This document shows, in pieces, positions 2,308 through 27,352 of a DNA stretch of 56,822 nucleotides. This stretch comes from Candidatus Gottesmanbacteria bacterium (lineage in GTDB: Bacteria; Patescibacteriota; Microgenomatia; UBA10105; UBA927), in contig CAWEKC010000002.1 in NCBI GenBank assembly GCA_963809665.1, positions 1-56,822 on the forward strand, read 5' to 3'. The position numbers and the translations under genes were made by a program. The notes beneath the pieces are model-generated. The model did no database searches, was not told where the DNA came from, and worked only from the letters and a program-made list of their open reading frames with translations. Positions within the stretch are counted from its first letter, which is position 1. Every line of letters begins with the position of its first letter.

Positions 2308-2316
2308 TGATATAAT
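2308..2316 (+). promoter_or_regulatory. Extended -10 promoter (TGaTATAAT) 6 nt before ATG; probable leaderless transcript
   Basis: TG at 2308-2309, TATAAT at 2311-2316, ATG at 2323, no SD. Confidence 0.6.
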
Positions 2317-2322
2317 TCCTTC

Positions 2323-3855
2323 ATGCGCAGACTTTTGTCTGAAAAAATTCATCTATCATCCGACTTCGTACTTTCCTTATTTCTTTTTATCCTCACATTT
2401 GTCATCGCCGGCAGTTTTTCCGTCATCGGTATTGATGCCCGCCATGACGGGGCTATGTTAAAACCGGCATTGGATGTCTCACGCGGCCTCATGCTTTTCC
2501 GGGATTCATTGACTACGTACGGGGCTTTAGCTACGCTTATGCAGGCCGGCGCCCTCATGCTCTTCGGCAGATATCTTGTAACGCTGAAACTGCTCTCCGC
2601 TGCGTTTTACGGGGGTATTGCCGTATTGCAGTACCTTATATATAAACGGGTTCTTCCGGGATCAATGGCATTTATAACCGTAATTCTCTGGCTGTTTTTA
2701 GCTCCCTATTTTTTCTGGCCGTTTCTTATCTGGTCATCGGTTTATGCCCAGTTCTTCCAGCTTGTCGCCGTATATCTTCTTATTCTCTGGTTGGAACATA
2801 AACGGATGTCGTATCTTATTTCTGCCGGTGTAGCAACAGCGTGCGTTTTTTATACCCGTCAAACGGTCGGCGTATTTACCGCGTTCGGAATAATCGCATT
2901 TTTTATAATTCTCGCTATTGCGCGCAAACTGTCCCTGAAACAAACGGTGAATGATATTGCCGGGTTGATGTCGGGAATTATTGCCGTCGCCCTTCTCATT
3001 ACAGTTTGGCTGGCCGCCAATCACAGCATACCGGATTGGTGGAAACAATCATTTGTGCTCGGGACATTGCTTGCCACCCAATTTAACTCAATCGGTGACT
3101 TACTGAACCTCCTCAAAATCACGTTCTTCCCACTGTCAAACCCTATTTTTGTTACCAGCCCGGTCGAATTGTGGGTACTACTCCCCGTTACATCCGTTAT
3201 CGTATTCGTACAGTATTGTTTTTTCCGTAAAAAGGGTAATCAAAACCACGTATCATACGTCTTGTTACTTACGCTTGTTGCGCTGGCTTCGTGGACCCAG
3301 TATTATCCGATGATAGATTACCGTCATATCTACTGGGGAAGCACGCCGATGTTCGGGGTTCTGGCGTTATTTTGTTATGAACTTGGTGCGGTTTATCCTG
3401 TCCATTTTTAAGAAGAACTCAGTTCTGCTTGCTACTAGTAATTACAATCGTAGGATTATGTATTCTTTTTTATCCCGATATTTCCACGAGGGTTCTTGCA
3501 GGAAAAGGAAAAACTATCCGCGTCATATGAAACGCTTTCGTATCCGGCGGTTCTTCAGGGCGTACGGGTTACTGCCCGCGAAAAACAGTATATTACGGAT
3601 TTTGACAATTCACTGACGTCATATTTCAAAAATAATCCCGAAGGCTCAGTCGTAAATCTCAGCGGGGACGGACTCTGGCCGTCACTATACGATCACATGA
3701 CAAATATCCGTCCGTTATATTTGTATGCGGCCCAATTCATGTGGGCAGTCTATCCTGATTTTCTTCCCCGTACACTTACATATATAGCAACAAATCACCC
3801 GCTTGTTGTAACAGACCCGACATCCATTTCTTCCGGCGGGTTATTGTCCCGATAA
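2323..3855 (+). CDS. Polytopic membrane protein, GT-C/ArnT-like, frameshifted at about 3390-3500; 3' end uncertain
   Basis: N-terminal DARHDG loop, about 11 TM segments (ORF 2323-3411), then a soluble C-terminal piece (ORF 3496-3855). Confidence 0.55.
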
Positions 3856-3916: not shown

Positions 3917-5182
3917 ATGAAACGCTCAACAATTACAGGTGTAAACGTAAACCGGAAACTTATCACGATCATTGTGGGTGTCATTATTTGCTTACTTTTC
4001 CTTTTCTTCCGGGTTTATGAATTCAAACAACGTACTCAAATATCGTTCGATCAGGTAAACAATGCGTGGGCCGCCTACCGGATTATTGCTGAGCACAATT
4101 TTCCTTTAGAAGGTCCGGCTGCCAAAATGTCATCGATCACCATCGGCCCCCTCTATTATTACTACGTTGCCTTTTTTTACTGGATAACGGATTTACATTT
4201 TATTGCTTCCCCGATTATTGCTCTTGTAACGGCTAGTATTAATTTCGGTATATTATATGCCGTTACCCGGAGGTTATTCGGATCAAAAACGGCATTGATA
4301 GCATCGGGTATAAACGCTATATCAGTGTATTTTATATTTTCCGACCGGGGGCAGGTGCCGATAAATTTTATTCCTTCTGTCGGACTCCTGCTGTTTTATT
4401 ATTTATATGAAGTTCTCCGGGGAAAGGGTGATAATATCCCATGGCTTGCCGTCATGTTGGGTTTATCTTTTCATATCCATTTTACTTCCGTATTTTACCC
4501 GGTCATTATCGCGGTGACGCTTCCATGGTGGCCGAACATAAAAACAAATGCTAAATATTACCTGTATGCGGTTGGGCTTCTTATCGTTTCTTTTTCTCCC
4601 ATGATCATTGATAGTGTGATTAAAAAACAACCGTTTTGGCAGGCGTCGGGAGCGTACATCAGTTCTTCAACCCACGGATTGCACCTACGGAGAATTCTTC
4701 AGCTTTCCCACGATGCGTTTATTGAGTTTGAATCCATCCTGATGTTCAGGTTCTTCCGCCCGTTTGTCTATTTTGTATTACCGTTGTTTGTGTATATATA
4801 CAACATACGCCAAAAAAGAAAAAACCTGTGGATCGGGATACTTCTTTCCTTATGGATTATTGTCCCCTGGATAGGATTTTCACTGTATACGGGCGAAATC
4901 ACGAGTTATTATTTTTCAGTCAGCCGATACATCGTACTGATGATTATTTCCTATTTGATCTATTGGTTGTGGAATACACATATCATTTCAAAAATCTTCC
5001 TGTGCATATTTGCGGTTAGTTTCCTGTTTTTTAACACTCAGAAGTTCTTTACCGCAGGTAAGGGAAATCTCATTAAATTGGAAAATGAATTTAAAGTAAA
5101 CAACCAGTACAAAAACTATATCCCGTATAAGGAGGGCGACCCGAGGTCATACTTATATACAATTTATATAAGACAAAGATAA
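3917..5182 (+). CDS. Glycosyltransferase family 39 / ArnT-PMT-like membrane protein
   Basis: First-loop FDQ..AW and GPLYYY motifs, multi-TM body, 421 aa intact. Confidence 0.7.
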   Translation: MKRSTITGVNVNRKLITIIVGVIICLLFLFFRVYEFKQRTQISFDQVNNAWAAYRIIAEHNFPLEGPAAKMSSITIGPLYYYYVAFFYWITDLHFIASPIIALVTASINFGILYAVTRRLFGSKTALIASGINAISVYFIFSDRGQVPINFIPSVGLLLFYYLYEVLRGKGDNIPWLAVMLGLSFHIHFTSVFYPVIIAVTLPWWPNIKTNAKYYLYAVGLLIVSFSPMIIDSVIKKQPFWQASGAYISSSTHGLHLRRILQLSHDAFIEFESILMFRFFRPFVYFVLPLFVYIYNIRQKRKNLWIGILLSLWIIVPWIGFSLYTGEITSYYFSVSRYIVLMIISYLIYWLWNTHIISKIFLCIFAVSFLFFNTQKFFTAGKGNLIKLENEFKVNNQYKNYIPYKEGDPRSYLYTIYIRQR

Positions 5183-5210
5183 CCCTATTTTTGGAAATTT
5201 GTGTTTAGCC

Positions 5211-5219
5211 TGCTATAAT
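5211..5219 (+). promoter_or_regulatory. Extended -10 promoter (TGcTATAAT) of the NMP kinase gene
   Basis: TATAAT at 5214-5219, 9 nt before the ATG at 5229. Confidence 0.55.
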
Positions 5220-5228
5220 GCCTCAAAC

Positions 5229-5849
5229 ATGAACACCGAACGGGGCAGGCTCTATAACGTGGAAGGACTGGATGCGGCGGGAAAATCAACACTGGCTAAG
5301 GAATTACAGAAGAAATTTGACGGTGTTATGACATACAGCCCGCCGGACTGGATGAGACCGTACCGGACGTTTTCAACAACTCGCCAGCCGATATTCGGTT
5401 CCTGTATTATGCGTATAGTAATTTCTGGGTTGACAGGGTTATGGTACGTCCTCTTTTGGAACGTGACGGGAGATATGTATTCCAGGACCGGACATGGCTG
5501 ACGACGTTATCCGCACATGAAGATATGGGAACATCACGTATTCTGCTTCGGCTCGGATTAACAGCTCGCGAAAGCCGCAACCCGTCCCGATATCGCCTTT
5601 ATTATTCACGTTGATAACGCGGAAAGACGGCAGAGAATGATGAGCAGGAATGTGATTACCCCTGATGATATTACCAGTCTTGAAAACCAGGATGAAATGG
5701 AAAAAAGTCTGGTGTCATGGGTCGGTCGTCTCGGGTGGAAGACGGTTATCTTTGATAATTCGCACTTCACGCCCGATCAGGCGCGGGAGGAGTTAGTGCG
5801 GTATATCAGTGACAGAAATCTTAAAACGATCCCGGTAAAACCTCTTTGA
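5229..5849 (+). CDS. Nucleoside monophosphate kinase of the thymidylate kinase family, CMPK2-like (about 206 aa after fixing two compensating indels)
   Basis: P-loop EGLDAAGKST; SPP..MRPYRTFF..SP; DRTW motif in the shifted frame (5374-5560); RPD..FIIHV...ERRQR. One T is missing in TTTT 5370-5373 and there is one extra base near 5561. Confidence 0.8.
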
Positions 5850-6333
5850 TTGATATGTGTTGGGACTGACCCTTCGGTATATGGTATTCGACATTATCCC
5901 CTGCGTGCTTCCCCAGAAGCATCGTTCCTAACGGCGATTCATAGGAAATCCACCCCTGTTTGTTCTGAGACGCATCATCGGGGCCCAACAGGGTGAATGT
6001 TTCGTCTTCAGTCTCACCGGCAAACCTCACTGTAATCGTATTTCCGACGCCGATGGTATCTATTTGTTTGCGCGGCTCAATGATGGTCACGTCATAGAGC
6101 TTGTCTTTAATCTCGGAAAGCATCCGCGACGCCAGATCTGCCTGCCTCGATGCTTCTTCATACGCAAAGTTGTCATGGTATTCGTCGCCTTTCTCGATTG
6201 CCGCGCCCATTTCCAGCTGGAATCGTTTGTGTTGTTCCTGAAGCTGTGACAGCCGCTGCTCAAGGGCATCTTTGGTAAATTGCGTCATCAAACGGGATCC
6301 GGTACGGTTTTCCTGTTCAAATTTGTTATTCAT
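5821..6333 (-). CDS. greA: GreA/GreB-family transcript cleavage factor
   Basis: N-terminal coiled coil with acidic tip GDEYHDNFAY; C-terminal IS..SPLG..LLGK..GD motif; SD GGAGGG at 6339-6344; ATG at 6333 overlaps the PfkB stop. Confidence 0.85.
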   Translation of the reverse strand: MNNKFEQENRTGSRLMTQFTKDALEQRLSQLQEQHKRFQLEMGAAIEKGDEYHDNFAYEEASRQADLASRMLSEIKDKLYDVTIIEPRKQIDTIGVGNTITVRFAGETEDETFTLLGPDDASQNKQGWISYESPLGTMLLGKHAGDNVEYHIPKGQSQHISIKEVLPGSF

Positions 6334-7138
6334 AATCACCCTCCGATGTTATATGCTCCACGCCGAATGCCGAGACGGAAAGGGAAGCCAGGTTGACTGC
6401 CTTTTCCAGTGCGGTTTCCACAGGGACTCCTTTCGCACGCTGTGCTAAAAACGCACCGGCAAGTACGTCACCTGCGCCTGTAGTCTCAACGGAAGCAACA
6501 ACCGGCGCCGGTATCATTATTATATCGTTCCCGTGAATATATTCTGCACCGGATTTTCCTTTTTTAAGGACAATCGGTGTATCAAATACCGTCTCACCAA
6601 GCTCACGGACTATATTAAATTCCGCCTCGTTCGCAAATATCAACGAAGCTTTCCGGAACATCTGCTTTGTTAAATCCGGAAATTTTTCGACGAATTCCTC
6701 AAAACTATCAACGGAAACATGTGTATGGCCGGATAACATCTCCAGCCATGTTAAAGCATGTTCCGGCAATTGCGTCGGCAGATGGATAAATTTTGCAGAT
6801 ACATATGCATCAGGGAATATCGCTGTCTCTACAATCCCCGCCACGCCCCTTTGAGCCGCAAATTCTCTCGTATTATCCGGGTGCTGCGTTATAACAAACC
6901 TGCACGTTGCTCCGTTCTCCTTTATACGGATCCCTTCGATATCAATACCTTTCTGCGTAAGTACTGTTGTATCAAAATCCCTGCCGATCTTTGCCACCAC
7001 ACCCACTTTATCACTGTAGCGTGACGCCCCGACCGCAGCATAATACGCGGCCCCGCCGGGTGAAACTTTGCTTCCCGAGGGCGTAATGTCCTCATTCCAT
7101 GCAACATCGCCGATAATCGCAACATCCAGCTCTCTCAT
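6326..7138 (-). CDS. PfkB/ribokinase-family kinase (possible nucleoside kinase)
   Basis: PGGAAYYAA N-terminal motif, NEAE, and ETTGAGD anion-hole signature with the catalytic Asp; ATGA overlap with the RNR stop. Confidence 0.9.
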   Translation of the reverse strand: MRELDVAIIGDVAWNEDITPSGSKVSPGGAAYYAAVGASRYSDKVGVVAKIGRDFDTTVLTQKGIDIEGIRIKENGATCRFVITQHPDNTREFAAQRGVAGIVETAIFPDAYVSAKFIHLPTQLPEHALTWLEMLSGHTHVSVDSFEEFVEKFPDLTKQMFRKASLIFANEAEFNIVRELGETVFDTPIVLKKGKSGAEYIHGNDIIMIPAPVVASVETTGAGDVLAGAFLAQRAKGVPVETALEKAVNLASLSVSAFGVEHITSEGDYE

Positions 7139-8839
7139 AATTGTATTGGTTGGTTAATCTGACTTCCGTCCCTGTACACGGTAATGTTTTTTAATCCCAT
7201 GCCGTGCGCGTTGATAAAAATATCCAGAACATCCTGCACCGAAGCCGTTGACGGTAAATTCACTGTTTTGGAAACGGCTTCGTCATAGACGCTGCTTACT
7301 GCGGCAACCATTTTCAGCTGATCGATGGACTGATATCTCTTTAACTGTTTTAAGTACATCTTTGTCCGGGAGTGATCCGTTTTGAAACGTTCCACACGCC
7401 TGCGCCTGTTTCATGACACCGGAACTTTCATCGCCGGTCCTCTGCCGTACAAACGATTCTATGACTTTCCGGGTTTCATCGTTCAGTCTGTGCAAAGAAA
7501 ACAGCGGTTCTATGCTCGACGTTACTCCCAAAAGAATTGACGTCCTTCCTGTGGGTGGCAACGTCGTCGTCAATATATTTCTCAGGTATCCGGTATTCTT
7601 AATATACGCGGCGAACGATTCCCATGCCTCACGCGATACGGATTCAGTCGGATTGGCAGCATACCGGGACTCGATAAATCCGTTATAATATTTATTATTC
7701 TCCCGATCGGACATCGCACCGCACGACCCGCGATGCTCCGCCAGTCTCACTGATGCAACTTTCGATGAATAATTTATTGATGCAAGAATATTTTGCGCCG
7801 TTAGTCTTCCTTTGTCGGAATCGTAGGGTATTCCCAACTGAATAAGAGTATCCGCGAGTCCGCATACCCCGATACCGATTTTCCGTTTTAACGTTGCGAG
7901 ACGTTGACTCTCCTCATCGGGAAAGCCATTCCGGCTTATTTCTATTGCGTTATCAAGCGCTCTCACCATAACCGCCGTTGCCTCTGACAATTTTGTATAA
8001 TCCACTCCATCCTGTTTCACGAATTTTAACAGATTTATGTATCCGAATTGGCAGGTTTCTCCCGGGGCTAAACCCATCTCGGAACACGGAGGTGTTGACG
8101 TATATGAACTGATGGTTTTAATCGGATTATCCCTGTTCATCCGTTCCAAAGAAATAAGGCCCGGATCTCCGTTGTGATGCGCACACTGGGCCATTTCCTC
8201 CAATAATCCATAGGCATCTATATTTGTACCGTCCGACAATCTATATGATCTATGCTCCGTTGCGGATGCCATAAAGTCTTCGCTGACATCCACAGAAATA
8301 TTGAAGTGCTTCATGGATGAGTCTCTTTTCGCCCGGATAAACTCCCTGATCCGGGGATGGGAAACATGCAGGCTTCCCATATTGCCTATATACCTGTCAT
8401 ACAGTCCGGTTGCAGTTTCATTCGCTGAAAGTTCGTTTAACCAATGCAGGAGGCCGACGGGATCTTCGTATGATGTAAAATCAAATCCGGATCCCATATT
8501 TTGTCTGTAATACTTCCGTATTTTGACCGCTGCATCATCAAGTTTTCGTAAATCAACGGGTATTACGACGCAGGATGACAATGCGGCGTGAGAATATTCC
8601 GGTCTCCCTGCGTTGGTAAGCGTCGGTGTTCCGGGAGAAAGCGCACCTTCAAGCATATAACTGGCAAATAGGTCTTTGTTTCCCTGCGTTTCCCACTGAT
8701 CAATACCCCATGAAGATTCAACGGAAAACAGCGTGTGTACGACACGCTCAAACATATGCTGAGGTGTTTCTTCGGGGGCTAAAATTTTCCCTCCGGCTAA
8801 CATTTTAGTTACCCGTTGGGAAATTTCGAATTCTTTCAT
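7135..8839 (-). CDS. nrdJ: Divergent class II (B12-type, NrdJ-like) ribonucleotide reductase, about 567 aa after removing one extra base near 7327
   Basis: PTLTNAG, LSSC, NMG.L.V.HP.I.EFI.AK, FNISV, GDPG, PPCSE, ETC.FG.INL, RKIGIGVCGLAD, PTG..SI, SSIEP; C-terminal AVSKTVNLP and GLKNITVYRDGS. No class I Tyr-Tyr pair, no ATP cone. Confidence 0.85.
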
Positions 8840-8887
8840 ATATCATTCTTTACGTGATATTGCCGGGAACATCGGGCGTAAAAGCCT

Positions 8888-8916
8888 ATAATACCTTCCA
8901 AACACAACTATGTCAA
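8888..8916 (-). promoter_or_regulatory. Near-consensus sigma70 promoter of the nrdJ-like/pfkB/gre operon
   Basis: TTGACA (8916-8911), 17-nt spacer, TATTAT (8893-8888), about 50 nt upstream of the ATG at 8839. Confidence 0.8.
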
Positions 8917-8953
8917 CACACAACGTACAATAAATATGGGGAGGTATAAACCC

Positions 8954-10084
8954 TTAACTTCTCTGCCTCAGGAAGGCGGGGATATCGAATTCGTCCTCTT
9001 CCGGCGGCAGCTCATCGTTTTTTATCGGCGGCGGGGGAGCCTGGTTGGACGTCTGGGCTACATGCGTCTGCGTCGGCTGGGCCATGGTACTGTAGCTGGG
9101 TTGGCCGGATAACTCCCGTAAACGTTTTTTTGTCTCGTCAAAGCCGGTTGCAATCACGGCAATCTTCACCTGATCCACCATATTCTGGTCAATGGTTGCG
9201 CCGAAAATTATATTGGCGTCCGGATCAACGGCGGAAGCAATTTGTTTTGCAGCCTCATCCACTTCGGCCATTGTAAGGTCCGGCCCTCCGGTTATATTGA
9301 ATAAGACTCCCTTTGCCCCTTCAATAGAAATCTCAAGAAGCGGCGATGCAATAGCAGTACGGGCGGCCGTTGCAGCCCTGTTTTCCCCGACACCGGTCCC
9401 GATACCCATAAGGGAACTTCCCGCATTGGTCATAATTGTCCGTACATCGGCAAAATCCACATTGATGAGGCCGGGCATCGTGATAAGATCGGCAATACCC
9501 TGCACCCCTTGGCCCAAAACCGAATCCGTCACACGGAATGCGTCCAAAAGCGTCATTTTTTTATCAATGACTTCCATAAGCCGCTGGTTGGGAATGACAA
9601 TAAGCGTATCCACTTTATCTTTGAGGTTCATGATGCCTTCTTCCGCAGTCACCATGCGTCTCGTACCTTCAAAATGGAACGGTTTCGTAACAACGGCGAT
9701 AGTGAGGGCCCCTAATTCTTTAGCAAGTTCCGCGATAATCGGCGTGGCCCCTGTTCCCGTGCCACCCCCTTCACCGCAGGTAAGAAATACCATGTCCGCA
9801 TCGCGCAGGTATTCCTTGAGTTTTTCGCGCGATTCTTCCGCGGCTTGTTTCCCTATTTCCGGATCGCCGCCTGCCCCGAGCCCGCGGGTGAGATTTTCTC
9901 CGATCTGTACTTTCGTCGACGCCTGGCAGGTAAGTAACGCCTGTGCGTCCGTATTGAGTCCCACAAAATCCACGCCTTTTATCTGGCTGCCGATAATCAT
10001 GGAGTTTATGGCATTGCAGCCGCCGCCGCCGATACCGATGACTTTAATTTTGGCAAACCGCGCAATGTCTGGTTTTATAAGCAT
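8954..10084 (-). CDS. ftsZ: Cell division protein FtsZ
   Basis: GGGTGTG tubulin motif, NVDFADV, C-terminal DIPAFLR peptide. Confidence 0.99.
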
Positions 10085-17558: not shown

Positions 17559-17915
17559 TTATAGGTACGGCAAAAACACGAAACCCGCAACAACGACGGC
17601 ACCGACAGCCACGGTCAGCATCATACCGGCCGCTACATCTTTGGCAATTTTGGCTTCGGCACGCCACTCGTGGGTAATAAGGTCCGTCATTGATTCAAGC
17701 GCAGTATTTATAAATTCAGCTGTAAGCCCAAGAACGATCGTAAATATGATGATAGCCCATTCGGTCCGGGTAATACGTAAATACCAGCTTAATAAGAGAG
17801 CGAATACGGCAAGAACGAGATGGATGCGGAAATTCGGTTGTGTACGCAGTGCCCATGCAAGGCCGGAAAAGGCGTTTTTGAACGAAACCGTATGTTTCCG
17901 GATGATTTCTCTCAT
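17559..17915 (-). CDS. dgkA: Diacylglycerol/undecaprenol kinase
   Basis: SFKNAFSG..NFRIH, EFINTALE..TD, AKIAKDVAAG. Confidence 0.9.
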   Translation of the reverse strand: MREIIRKHTVSFKNAFSGLAWALRTQPNFRIHLVLAVFALLLSWYLRITRTEWAIIIFTIVLGLTAEFINTALESMTDLITHEWRAEAKIAKDVAAGMMLTVAVGAVVVAGFVFLPYL

Positions 17916-17956
17916 AACTATATAAAAGTATAACGGCTCAACTGTAAAAATACAAA

Positions 17957-18910
17957 TTAGTACCCTTTAAGGTGTTTGCGTACGAGTTCTATGGTTTTCG
18001 GGATCACATACAGGGGAGTTACCGGATAATCCATCGCATGTATAAATGACACCGTACGCCCCCCGAACCCTGTTTTGAACAACGTTATACCCCGCCACGG
18101 ATGATTTAGTTTGTTGTCCGGCGCTATACCCCAAAAATTGTACAATTTTTTCCCCCGTTTCCTAGCCTCACAGACTGCCTCCCACTGAATTAAATAGGAC
18201 CCCGGAATTTTACTTGGTATCGAGGCTCCGTGATGGTAAACGGCCTCATCACCGAAATAGACAATAATTGCCGCGGCAAGTATTTTTCCTTCGAACGATG
18301 CAAGGTACAGCTGTGCGTCGAGTGTTTCCATCTCTTCACGGATGCCTTTGTGCTGCACAAAATTATGCCTGTTTGATGTGTCGCTGTATAAGTCAAGAAA
18401 CTTAGATATATCATTACTTTTTACAATTTTTACTCCCATTTTTTGTGCTTTCCTGATTTCATAGCGGGTAGTTTTACGCATCCCCGCCAGAAGGTCATCT
18501 TCGGTTTTATCCAAGTCCAGCACCCAGCAGACTTCCGCATCCATCGCATGAATCGGGGCGGGCACAAATCCCATATTTTTATACAAACCGGGTTCTGTTA
18601 CTTGCGGGCTGATGCGGATAAACCATGACCGTTCATTTTTGGCGAGTTCTTTAAGATCAGTAAAATTTATGTCACCTACCGGTCCGTGGCGGATATGGAG
18701 AAACATTCCGCGCCGGGCTGATACTTTAATTATTTGCGCAACACCGACAAGCGAGTTTTTGTCAAACCACCCCCACCGCCAAACATGATGACCCATCTTC
18801 TTCTCCACGTCTCCCCATGCCCATAATTGAAAAAGTGCATGAGGGGAATGGCTGAGAATAAACGCATTCCATACATTCTCCGATATAATTTCCTTTTTCA
18901 GTAGAACCAT
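17957..18910 (-). CDS. FemABX-family (aminoacyl-tRNA-dependent) peptidoglycan peptidyltransferase
   Basis: LFQ..AWG, HGPV, MRKTTRYEIRKAQK.GV, YHHGAS, YNFWGI, GITLFKTGFGG. Confidence 0.88.
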   Translation of the reverse strand: MVLLKKEIISENVWNAFILSHSPHALFQLWAWGDVEKKMGHHVWRWGWFDKNSLVGVAQIIKVSARRGMFLHIRHGPVGDINFTDLKELAKNERSWFIRISPQVTEPGLYKNMGFVPAPIHAMDAEVCWVLDLDKTEDDLLAGMRKTTRYEIRKAQKMGVKIVKSNDISKFLDLYSDTSNRHNFVQHKGIREEMETLDAQLYLASFEGKILAAAIIVYFGDEAVYHHGASIPSKIPGSYLIQWEAVCEARKRGKKLYNFWGIAPDNKLNHPWRGITLFKTGFGGRTVSFIHAMDYPVTPLYVIPKTIELVRKHLKGY

Positions 18911-26625: not shown

Positions 26626-27352
26626 TTAAAAGTGTATTATACCGAGTTGGACGCCAAAAGTTTTTTTCGTGTCTTTTCTGAATGAATTAAACTCGCTGAC
26701 CTGGCATGATGTACAGGTCACCGGAGCATCAATATGTTCTTTTTTAATACCTGCGTTGACTAACTGCAGATAATTTACATACCCGATGTCCAGATGCCAT
26801 CCGTCCCGCTCCCGCGCTGTGATCTTCTCATTATTGCCGAATATTTTTTGAAATACTTCGGCCCTGTCATCCGGAACAGTATAGCAACACATACCGATAT
26901 GCGGACCTATGGATAGACGGATGTCACCGGGTGTACAGCCCGCGGCAACCATCGAACTGACTAATTTTCCTGCAATCCCGTTTGCCGTTCCCCGCCATCC
27001 CGCATGCGCCACACCAATTGTCTGAGTTTCAGGATCCACTGCCAACAAAGGAACGCAGTCCGCAAACGAGACTCCCAAGCGCTACCGGCGCACCGTCTTT
27101 CCTGTACACAAGTCCGTCGGTTTCTGGGAGAGTCTTTCCGCGATCACTTGCTGTTACCACCGCAATGCGCACACCATGAATTTGCCGCGCCATTATAAGA
27201 TCTTTTGCTTGCGATCCGGTTAACCGGAGGAACGCGTCCCTATTGTCTGCCATTCGCATATCACCCAATATACGGCAGGAATACCCGGCCGAGATTGGTA
27301 GTCCGGTAAACGAAGAAATTGTATAGATCCCCCGCGGGTCTTTATGAATCAT
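26626..27352 (-). CDS. pgeF: PgeF/YfiH peptidoglycan editing factor (laccase-domain family); one extra base at CCC 27074-27076
   Basis: QIHG, DGL, ADCVP, AHAGWRG, IGPHIG.CCY; two ORFs join with a 1-nt correction. Confidence 0.88.

Follow-up and report, generated by a model that had tools for sequence, protein, structure and literature searches.

What does a ribonucleotide reductase (RNR) make when its active site lacks an asparagine held to be essential, and why does its gene lie close to one for a factor that acts at RNA polymerase? Both questions are raised by four genes at positions 5211-8916 of a Candidatus Gottesmanbacteria contig (CAWEKC010000002.1). We refer to the whole stretch of DNA analysed, which is 56.8 kb long, as the window. 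The region under study lies between a membrane glycosyltransferase gene and ftsZ. The four genes encode a NrdJ-like enzyme, resembling class II RNRs, a PfkB-family kinase, a Gre-family paralogue and a Tmk-family P-loop kinase. A preliminary description, made from the DNA letters alone, named the same four families. All are present, and the Pfam assignments are solid for three of the proteins. These are known kinds of enzyme, in variant form, arranged in a conserved, apparently undescribed cluster. With confidence just short of even, we read the cluster as an accessory pathway that converts a nucleoside to a ribose-reduced nucleotide and is coupled to RNA polymerase, rather than simply a bulk supply of deoxynucleoside diphosphates.

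RNRs are among the most closely studied radical enzymes. The asparagine missing here is used to decide whether a sequence passes or fails as a 'real' RNR and curated pipelines therefore discard the clade described below. Should the enzyme yield ordinary deoxynucleotides, current views on what the asparagine does would have to be revised. If it yields something else, this would be new chemistry for the RNR fold. Linkage to a factor of the polymerase secondary channel, found in 21 of the 47 loci with full flanks and in one fusion to a TFIIS ribbon, would then join nucleotide modification to transcript proofreading.

An RNR-like clade lacking the active-site asparagine

The active-site stretch of the window enzyme reads STPPCSEMG, compared with STNPCGEIG in T. 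maritima NrdJ. The asparagine (N437 in E. coli, N320 in T. maritima) is replaced by proline, encoded at 8090-8092; the PPCSE codons together span 8078-8092. The preliminary description had called the RNR active site altered. This is true, and the alteration is clade-wide. All relatives examined have alanine, proline, serine or valine at the asparagine position. The 120 closest homologues, down to 49% identity, have PPC or APC without exception, in the form PPC/APC[SAG]EMG. We also searched 1.84 billion cluster representatives with a profile and parsed motifs in the top 150, at 50% identity. Approximately 90 of these have [PAVS]PC[AGS]E together with GE.C[QVH]F[GA]Y. The canonical NPCGE...CNLGS combination starts only at ~380 bits and below, the exceptions being two long, multi-stretch proteins (P0147 and P0149). 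Similarly, each of 80 loci from a metagenome scan lacks the asparagine. These patterns point to a coherent clade, of which loss of the asparagine is a trait, rather than scattered defects.

Other key positions are retained. Residues C90, C252, E254 and C263 are invariant and provide the thiyl cysteine, the glutamate and the redox pair (C439, E441 and C225 with C462 in E. coli). P251 is also present, and corresponds to the position 438 proline that is diagnostic of class II enzymes (10.1101/2021.01.20.427478). Note that RNR curation treats N437, C439, E441 and C462 as required, and drops sequences missing any of them (10.1101/2021.01.20.427478). This probably explains why we came across no account of the clade in the searchable literature. 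No report of an RNR-Gre cluster was found there either, in searches of which that for 'GreA' was swamped by the word 'great'.

Two further regions of the protein are rebuilt. The CNLGS motif has become C[QVH]F[GA]Y, and loop 2 reads YDRYIGNMG rather than SRRRGALMG. The C-terminus ends ...VYRDGSQINQPIQL and has no conserved C-terminal cysteine, zinc finger or TSCPD domain. By contrast, three canonical NrdJ controls have TSCPD at the C-terminus. An AlphaFold2 model of the protein has a predicted local distance difference test (pLDDT) score of 91.6. The first Foldseek match is T. maritima NrdJ (3o0q), with a template modelling (TM) score of 0.86, and this protein is also the closest sequence match in the PDB. 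The NCBIfam model NrdJ_Z (TIGR02504) gives 350.8 bits, under its cut-off of 399.95. In common with class II NrdJ (T. maritima, PDB 1xje and 3o0q), the enzyme has a ten-stranded barrel, finger-loop cysteine, glutamate, redox pair and class II proline, and neither a beta subunit gene nor an activase gene is regularly adjacent. Unlike class II NrdJ, it is without the asparagine and the TSCPD domain, zinc finger or cysteine tail, has a different CNLGS region and loop 2, scores below the family cut-off and occupies a different gene neighbourhood. Both the fold and VYRDGS, a C-terminal motif, match class II and rule out a glycyl-radical (class III) enzyme, and the nearby genes include no consistent activase.

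The clade is patchily distributed. Using two exact peptide patterns, and one genome per species, we found 78 loci among 185,579 species genomes. Around 37 are in Patescibacteria or other metagenome-assembled genomes (MAGs), including Gottesman-, Roizman-, Davies-, Kerfeld-, Nomura- and Saccharibacteria, with one Aminicenantes, one Woesearchaeota and one Heimdallarchaeota. Around 40 are in actinomycetes, for example Nocardia, Amycolatopsis, Saccharothrix and Streptoalloteichus. The cluster is mainly in Patescibacteria, also called the candidate phyla radiation (CPR); relatives also occur elsewhere, DPANN-type archaea among them. Actinomycetes generally possess canonical RNRs and so the Asn-less gene is presumably an extra copy there. 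The actinomycete genes (L028 and other Nocardia and Amycolatopsis loci, L031-L077) adjoin genes for NUDIX proteins, XRE-type regulators, DUF5753, DUF6879 and a helix-turn-helix-peptide deformylase fusion, and no PfkB, Gre or Tmk-like gene is nearby. We found no relative of the enzyme among 2.9 million viral contigs.

Several of the records need care with respect to labels. Patescibacteria-like genes occur in third party annotation MAGs titled 'uncultured Gammaproteobacteria' or 'Pseudomonadales' (L001, L004-L007, L011, L013 and L014); these labels are probably wrong. At another locus (L068, 10001-11701) the RNR-like gene can be read only if TGA encodes glycine, so that TAPC*EV*L becomes TAPCGEVGL. 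Such decoding indicates genetic code 25, in spite of the title Candidatus Peribacteria given to the record.

Partner genes and a proposed link to RNA polymerase

The preliminary description treated the four genes as one unit. Their co-occurrence across genomes is strongly positive. The order seen in the window is intact at L001-L004, L097 and L107/L109 (KKB64_04570-04585 is an example of an intact homologous cluster) and the theme extends through 100 non-redundant loci. Two independent Pfam censuses, of 33 genome loci and 49 metagenome loci, considered the two nearest open reading frames (ORFs) either side of the enzyme. A further census used locally built hidden Markov models (HMMs) and a distance of 2.5 kb, in the 100 non-redundant loci, of which 47 have full flanks. 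The results are shown in Table 1.

Table 1. Protein families encoded near the Asn-less enzyme in each census (number of loci)
Family	Genome loci (of 33)	Metagenome loci (of 49)	Within 2.5 kb (of 100)	Within 2.5 kb, fully flanked (of 47)
P-loop kinase (Pfam: AAA_18 / Tmk / AAA_28)	8 / 7	15 / 12 / 15	46	28
NUDIX	11	18	43	23
Gre (Pfam: C-terminal domain; HMM: Gre-like)	9	8	32	21
CYTH	7	18	30	12
PfkB	9	4	13	8
APH	5	2	12	9
Nuc_deoxyrib_tr		5		
HD		3		
dNK		3		

The two Pfam censuses agree on the set of partners, and at least one kinase or hydrolase is present in 45 of the 47 fully flanked loci. The recurrent core consists of the enzyme, a CYTH protein, a P-loop kinase and a Gre-like protein, in many orders and orientations. 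The window version has PfkB in place of CYTH. The families persist although their order and strand vary, a pattern that simple inherited synteny would not readily give. One locus (L127) has two Asn-less copies, at 130-1797 and 5937-7670, ~4 kb apart, with CYTH, P-loop kinase and Gre-like genes between them.

Gene fusions involve the same families. The enzyme is fused to NUDIX (P0174), to a P-loop kinase (P0175) and, twice, to HD (P0178 and P0183). In three lineages, a PfkB-NUDIX fusion of ~408 aa is encoded directly downstream of the RNR-like gene (L079, 9710-10936; L015, 11561-12781; L098, 4599-5822). In the first of these, the fusion gene overlaps the RNR-like stop codon. A double P-loop kinase is encoded at L016.

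The tip of the window Gre protein reads KGDEYHDNFAY. Hence, there are two acidic residues, with one extra residue between them, compared with D41 and E44 of GreA (GDLxENAEY). Linked Gre proteins share the tip [D/E]x[W/Y/F]HDN[F/A/P]A[F/Y]. The N-terminal domain (PF03449) of the window protein scores 20.9, which is under the cut-off of 24.5, and that of linked Gre proteins is likewise under threshold. In an AlphaFold2 model (pLDDT 84), helices at 18-47 and 52-79 form a coiled coil, alongside a globular domain, and Foldseek matches the model to polymerase-bound GreA and Gfh1 (TM 0.75-0.77). The NCBIfam match is to Rnk, a member of the Gre family tied by name to nucleotide metabolism. The features shared with GreA/GreB, Gfh1 and Rnk are a C-terminal globular domain, an antiparallel coiled coil and, at an altered spacing, acidic tip residues. 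Unlike these proteins, the window factor has a sub-cut-off N-terminal domain and is encoded with nucleotide enzymes. Furthermore, the window-type tip, [D/E]x[W/Y/F]HDN, is one residue longer than the DxxEN of GreA.

At L016, in a Parcubacteria contig, the Gre-like gene (8728-9315) is beside the enzyme and a gene for canonical GreA (EEGDLKENSAY; 17560-18018) is 5.9 kb away. Hence, the linked factor is a paralogue in one genome at least. At L081, canonical GreA is encoded 8 kb from the enzyme. The 56.8-kb window itself has no second Gre or Tmk gene. Across fully flanked loci, a Gre-like gene is within 2.5 kb in 45% of cases, with enzyme identities down to ~33%. A gene present once per genome should rarely fall so close to a given gene by chance. 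We take this frequency as strong evidence that the genetic linkage of Gre and enzyme reflects functional coupling. The Gre gene encodes a specialised paralogue, from a distinct subfamily with a conserved tip, and is more than a chance neighbour. The link is better supported than could have been known from the window alone.

A second type of secondary-channel factor is found in one Asn-less protein (P0215, with the active site VATCGEIGL). This has a C-terminal zinc ribbon of the TFIIS/TFS type (PF01096, 42-44 bits) with the acidic hairpin ...QIGHADEDP... In archaea and eukaryotes, ribbons of the TFIIS/TFS type take the place of Gre at the polymerase pore. No relative of P0215 was found in the Joint Genome Institute (JGI) metagenomes, and no separate TFS-like ribbon gene is near the enzyme in the loci retrieved. 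The protein also has a further cysteine-rich stretch ahead of the ribbon.

The two kinases can be described only at the level of family. The PfkB translation contains GG (PGGAA), NxxE (NEAE) and TGAGD motifs. Its top NCBIfam match, ribose-1-phosphate kinase, scores 65 bits, far under the cut-off, and every other NCBIfam equivalog fares likewise. The best PDB match is 3kd6, a PfkB protein without known function. On these family profiles, the substrate is not assignable. A lookup of contigs encoding the window PfkB protein gave no record. The Tmk-like protein has the P-loop EGLDAAGKST and QDRTW (DR[Y/H/W]). It scores 29.9 bits with TIGR00041, compared with a cut-off of 83, and the best PDB match has an E value of 0.01. 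The preliminary description specified a CMPK2-like nucleoside monophosphate kinase. This stands only at the level of the Tmk family, where the score of 27 bits is exactly the Pfam cut-off. Intact homologues of the Tmk-like gene are present at L001-L004. Note that homologue searches by word index returned close relatives only (nine for the Tmk-like protein and 12 for Gre) and are uninformative about wider distribution.

The window locus and its frameshifts

The features of the locus are listed in Table 2. The stop codon of the NrdJ-like gene overlaps the PfkB start (ATGA, the reverse complement of 7135-7138) and the PfkB stop overlaps the Gre start (ATGAATAA, the reverse complement of 6326-6333). 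Both overlaps, noted previously, can be read directly from the sequence. The convergent overlap of the fourth gene with the Gre gene is likewise confirmed, and covers 29 nt (5821-5849). The flanking ftsZ gene is the head of a long division and cell-wall cluster, comprising ftsA, a ftsQ-like gene, mur genes, mraY, rsmH and mraZ. A scan of the whole window found no tRNA genes and no Rfam matches.

Table 2. Features of the cluster and its immediate flanks in the window
Feature	Position	Strand	Remarks
PMT_2-type membrane glycosyltransferase gene	3917-5182	plus	flank
Promoter-like site TTGGAA-17-TG-TATAAT (extended -10)	5191-5219	plus	upstream of Tmk-like gene; 10/12 matches plus TG
Tmk-family P-loop kinase	5229-5849	plus	convergent with Gre gene; mended, Pfam Thymidylate_kin (PF02223) 27 bits, equal to cut-off
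Gre-family paralogue	5821-6333	minus	intact, 170 aa counted from ATG; GreA_GreB C-terminal domain (PF01272) 68.7 bits
PfkB-family kinase	6326-7138	minus	intact, 270 aa; Pfam PfkB (PF00294) 97.9 bits
NrdJ-like (class II RNR-like) gene	7135-8839	minus	mended, 567 aa; Pfam Ribonuc_red_lgC (PF02867) 229 bits
Promoter-like site TTGACA-17-TATTAT	8916-8888	minus	upstream of NrdJ-like gene, inside 114-nt gap after ftsZ; 11/12 matches
ftsZ	8954-10084	minus	flank

The preliminary description also gave each transcription unit a promoter of its own. Both hexamer pairs are present, and these are the top-scoring and best-placed sites; that at 8916-8888 scores highest across 5000-9100. However, the total of nine promoter-like sites is no excess over shuffled sequences (7.4 +/- 2.5). 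Both are best regarded as consensus matches only. At three of the loci sharing the window gene order (L001, L002 and L003), the contig ends ~1.9-2.2 kb upstream of the RNR-like gene and ftsZ is not found there. A repeat, or a point of rearrangement, may lie at this spot.

Two of the four genes are broken as written, to which the earlier phrase 'corrected module' only alluded. One extra base, near 7333-7334, divides the NrdJ-like gene into ORFs at 7283-8839 (518 aa) and 7135-7395 (86 aa). Translated searches (tblastn) place the change of frame between 7334 and 7353, where homologues read KEIPFIDQL. The mended length equals that of three intact homologues (P0002, P0003 and P0005), and intact homologues are 77-80% identical. 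The Tmk-like gene is broken twice, by a base missing from the run of T residues at 5366-5369 and a surplus C near 5567. All three of the resulting pieces match an HMM built from intact homologues. Thus, there are three single-base insertions or deletions (indels) within 2.3 kb of coding sequence.

Neighbouring genes are in better condition. In ftsZ, ftsA, the ftsQ-like gene, murD and murI, one frame matches homologues at full length, and Pfam shows no split in mraY, rsmH or mraZ. The breaks therefore appear concentrated in the module, as far as a non-exhaustive frameshift screen of the window can indicate. The only other split gene in this screen is of the YfiH/PgeF type (PF02578, Cu-oxidase_4; 26629-27352, minus strand). 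Here, an ORF at 27032-27352 covers profile positions 28-91 and one at 26629-27081 covers 90-237, which makes four frameshifts for the window. In addition, ORFs of 366 aa and 133 aa, in different frames at 2311-3852 of the plus strand, have no Pfam match and may be one frameshifted gene for a membrane protein.

Either recent decay or consensus error could underlie the frameshifts. The odds are even, in our view, that the module survives here only as a decaying remnant, or is an artefact of assembly, and encodes nothing functional in this genome, irrespective of what the family does in others; the chance that the window copy is truly inactive is likewise roughly even. The density of indels, the unsplit division and cell-wall genes next door and the YfiH-like gene as sole further split gene all favour this. 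So do disrupted enzyme copies in other genomes. There are six in total, with in-frame stops or frameshifts (the window, L010, L015, L027, L076 and L126), and decayed copies seem unusually common for an RNR-like gene. Conversely, the PfkB and Gre paralogue genes are intact, one indel sits in a T run and the screen of the rest of the window was not exhaustive. The broken genes are also otherwise undamaged. Given their 77-80% identity to intact homologues, any decay must be very recent, or the indels are consensus errors. The in-frame stops at L010 (2139-2141), L015 (11255-11257) and L027 (11267-11269) are TAG, TGA and TAA respectively. Three different codons, at three different positions, rule out selenocysteine or recoding at these sites.

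Accessory route, salvage or immunity

We return to the accessory, polymerase-coupled route that we tentatively prefer for the family. In this scheme, PfkB, or APH-type and P-loop kinases in relatives, would act with the Tmk-like kinase to raise a salvaged nucleoside to the di- or triphosphate. In relatives, NUDIX, CYTH or HD hydrolases would trim triphosphates to the level required by the enzyme. The NrdJ-like enzyme would then do radical two-electron chemistry on the ribose. The product would connect to RNA polymerase via the dedicated Gre paralogue, in the secondary channel, which would either remove misincorporated product or sense it. Signs of accessory status are the presumed extra copies in actinomycetes, the 78 loci in 185,579 species and the six disrupted copies.

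A more specific version is doubtful, in our assessment. Here, the RNR-fold enzyme, with CQFGY and no asparagine, would use substrate supplied by the kinases to make a non-canonical ribose-reduced nucleotide, perhaps a 3'-deoxynucleoside triphosphate or another chain terminator. It would be partnered at RNA polymerase by a dedicated factor of the secondary channel. This partner, Gre in bacteria or a fused TFIIS/TFS ribbon, would excise the product, so conferring immunity, or would deliver or sense it. Were this true, radical chemistry would yield antiviral or antibiotic nucleotides independently of viperin, and the system would include its own factor for rescue of the polymerase.

Several points weigh against the accessory route. 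The conserved redox pair and glutamate equally fit ordinary 2'-reduction. The neighbours Nuc_deoxyrib_tr (five loci) and dNK (three loci) are typical of deoxynucleoside salvage. CPR bacteria are not known to make nucleotides de novo, and salvage clusters are expected there for this reason. No canonical RNR was found in 2.0 Mb of flanking sequence and so the Asn-less enzyme could be the only RNR of cluster-bearing genomes. Only one cluster representative shows the TFIIS-ribbon fusion, and the estimate of rarity hinges on two exact peptide patterns. Finally, the window cluster adjoins housekeeping genes, namely ftsZ with the division and cell-wall genes, and no PADLOC model matched the NrdJ-like, PfkB or Gre proteins.

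Some of these points favour ordinary deoxynucleotide salvage, which we consider a substantial, though minority, possibility. The enzyme would be a divergent, working class II RNR, possibly the only one, and Gre a housekeeping factor that merely shares the operon. PfkB would be a nucleoside kinase, and the Tmk-like protein a kinase for nucleoside monophosphates or dTMP. The NUDIX, CYTH and HD proteins and deoxyribosyltransferases of relatives would shuttle deoxyribose between bases. The invariant thiyl cysteine, glutamate and redox cysteines, the NrdJ fold and the P438 equivalent fit such a role. The Nuc_deoxyrib_tr and dNK neighbours, the lack of a second RNR in any flank, and of a second Gre or Tmk gene in the window, are consistent with it too, and host lineages generally have reduced, salvage-dependent genomes. 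Conversely, an asparagine held essential is absent clade-wide, the CNLGS motif and loop 2 are rebuilt, the cysteine tail and TSCPD domain of canonical controls are missing, and the score is under the NrdJ cut-off. Furthermore, the gene is presumably supernumerary in actinomycetes, rare among CPR genomes and frequently disrupted. The Gre partner is a distinct paralogue, accompanied by canonical GreA at L016, and the TFIIS-ribbon fusion is left unexplained. Comparison with salvage of the Lactobacillus type gives a similarly mixed result. Grouped kinases, salvage-dependent hosts and, at some loci, Nuc_deoxyrib_tr and dNK are shared. However, the Lactobacillus pathway runs without an RNR and has no Gre, NUDIX or CYTH partner.

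The preliminary description went further and proposed a parallel to viperin with CMPK2, in which Gre protects host transcription. In such an anti-phage cluster, kinases would supply a nucleoside triphosphate, the RNR-fold enzyme would turn it into a chain-terminating nucleotide and the Gre paralogue would excise this from host transcripts. We consider this improbable. In common with prokaryotic viperin and its kinase, or vertebrate viperin and CMPK2, a radical enzyme acting on ribose adjoins a Tmk-family or P-loop kinase. Unlike viperin, the window enzyme has an RNR fold rather than that of a radical S-adenosylmethionine (SAM) protein, and its redox cysteine pair points to net reduction, not dehydration. 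The window module has no radical SAM gene. There are also extra partners (NUDIX, CYTH and Gre).

Matches to PADLOC models were sought for 150 neighbours. The VakA model matched 16 (best E value 5.6e-22) and PDC-M51B matched 12 (best E value 9e-35), in each case P-loop kinases; the Tmk-like homologue P0121 scores 68.7 bits with PDC-M51B and 37.5 bits with VakA. NUDIX genes account for 17 matches to PDC-S07, and the dCTPase model matched six neighbours. A handful matched AbiEii, mad or AriA, and one pVip. These matches, the patchy distribution with frequent decayed copies, and the fit of a Gre paralogue and TFIIS-ribbon fusion to an immunity role at the polymerase, speak for defence. They are suggestive, not specific, since kinase, NUDIX and ATPase models readily cross-hit. 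PADLOC holds a separate model for 'viperins associated with kinases', and the meaning of 'VakA' could not be verified, a literature search with viperin returning nothing. The three remaining module proteins match no PADLOC model, and the 2.9 million viral contigs hold no relative and so give no sign of an arms race. Of the two signs named earlier as tests, patchy distribution and defence-island neighbours, the former stands, with its decayed copies, but the neighbours are housekeeping genes in the window and at many other loci.

The single pVip match is probably to the radical SAM protein encoded at L126, the only such ORF of the scanned set. Radical SAM (SPASM) proteins of 417-464 aa recur near the RNR-like gene at L007, L013, L065, L081 and L126. 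Their companions are an APH-type kinase, a 2-phosphosulfolactate-phosphatase-like gene and a GFO/IDH/MocA oxidoreductase.

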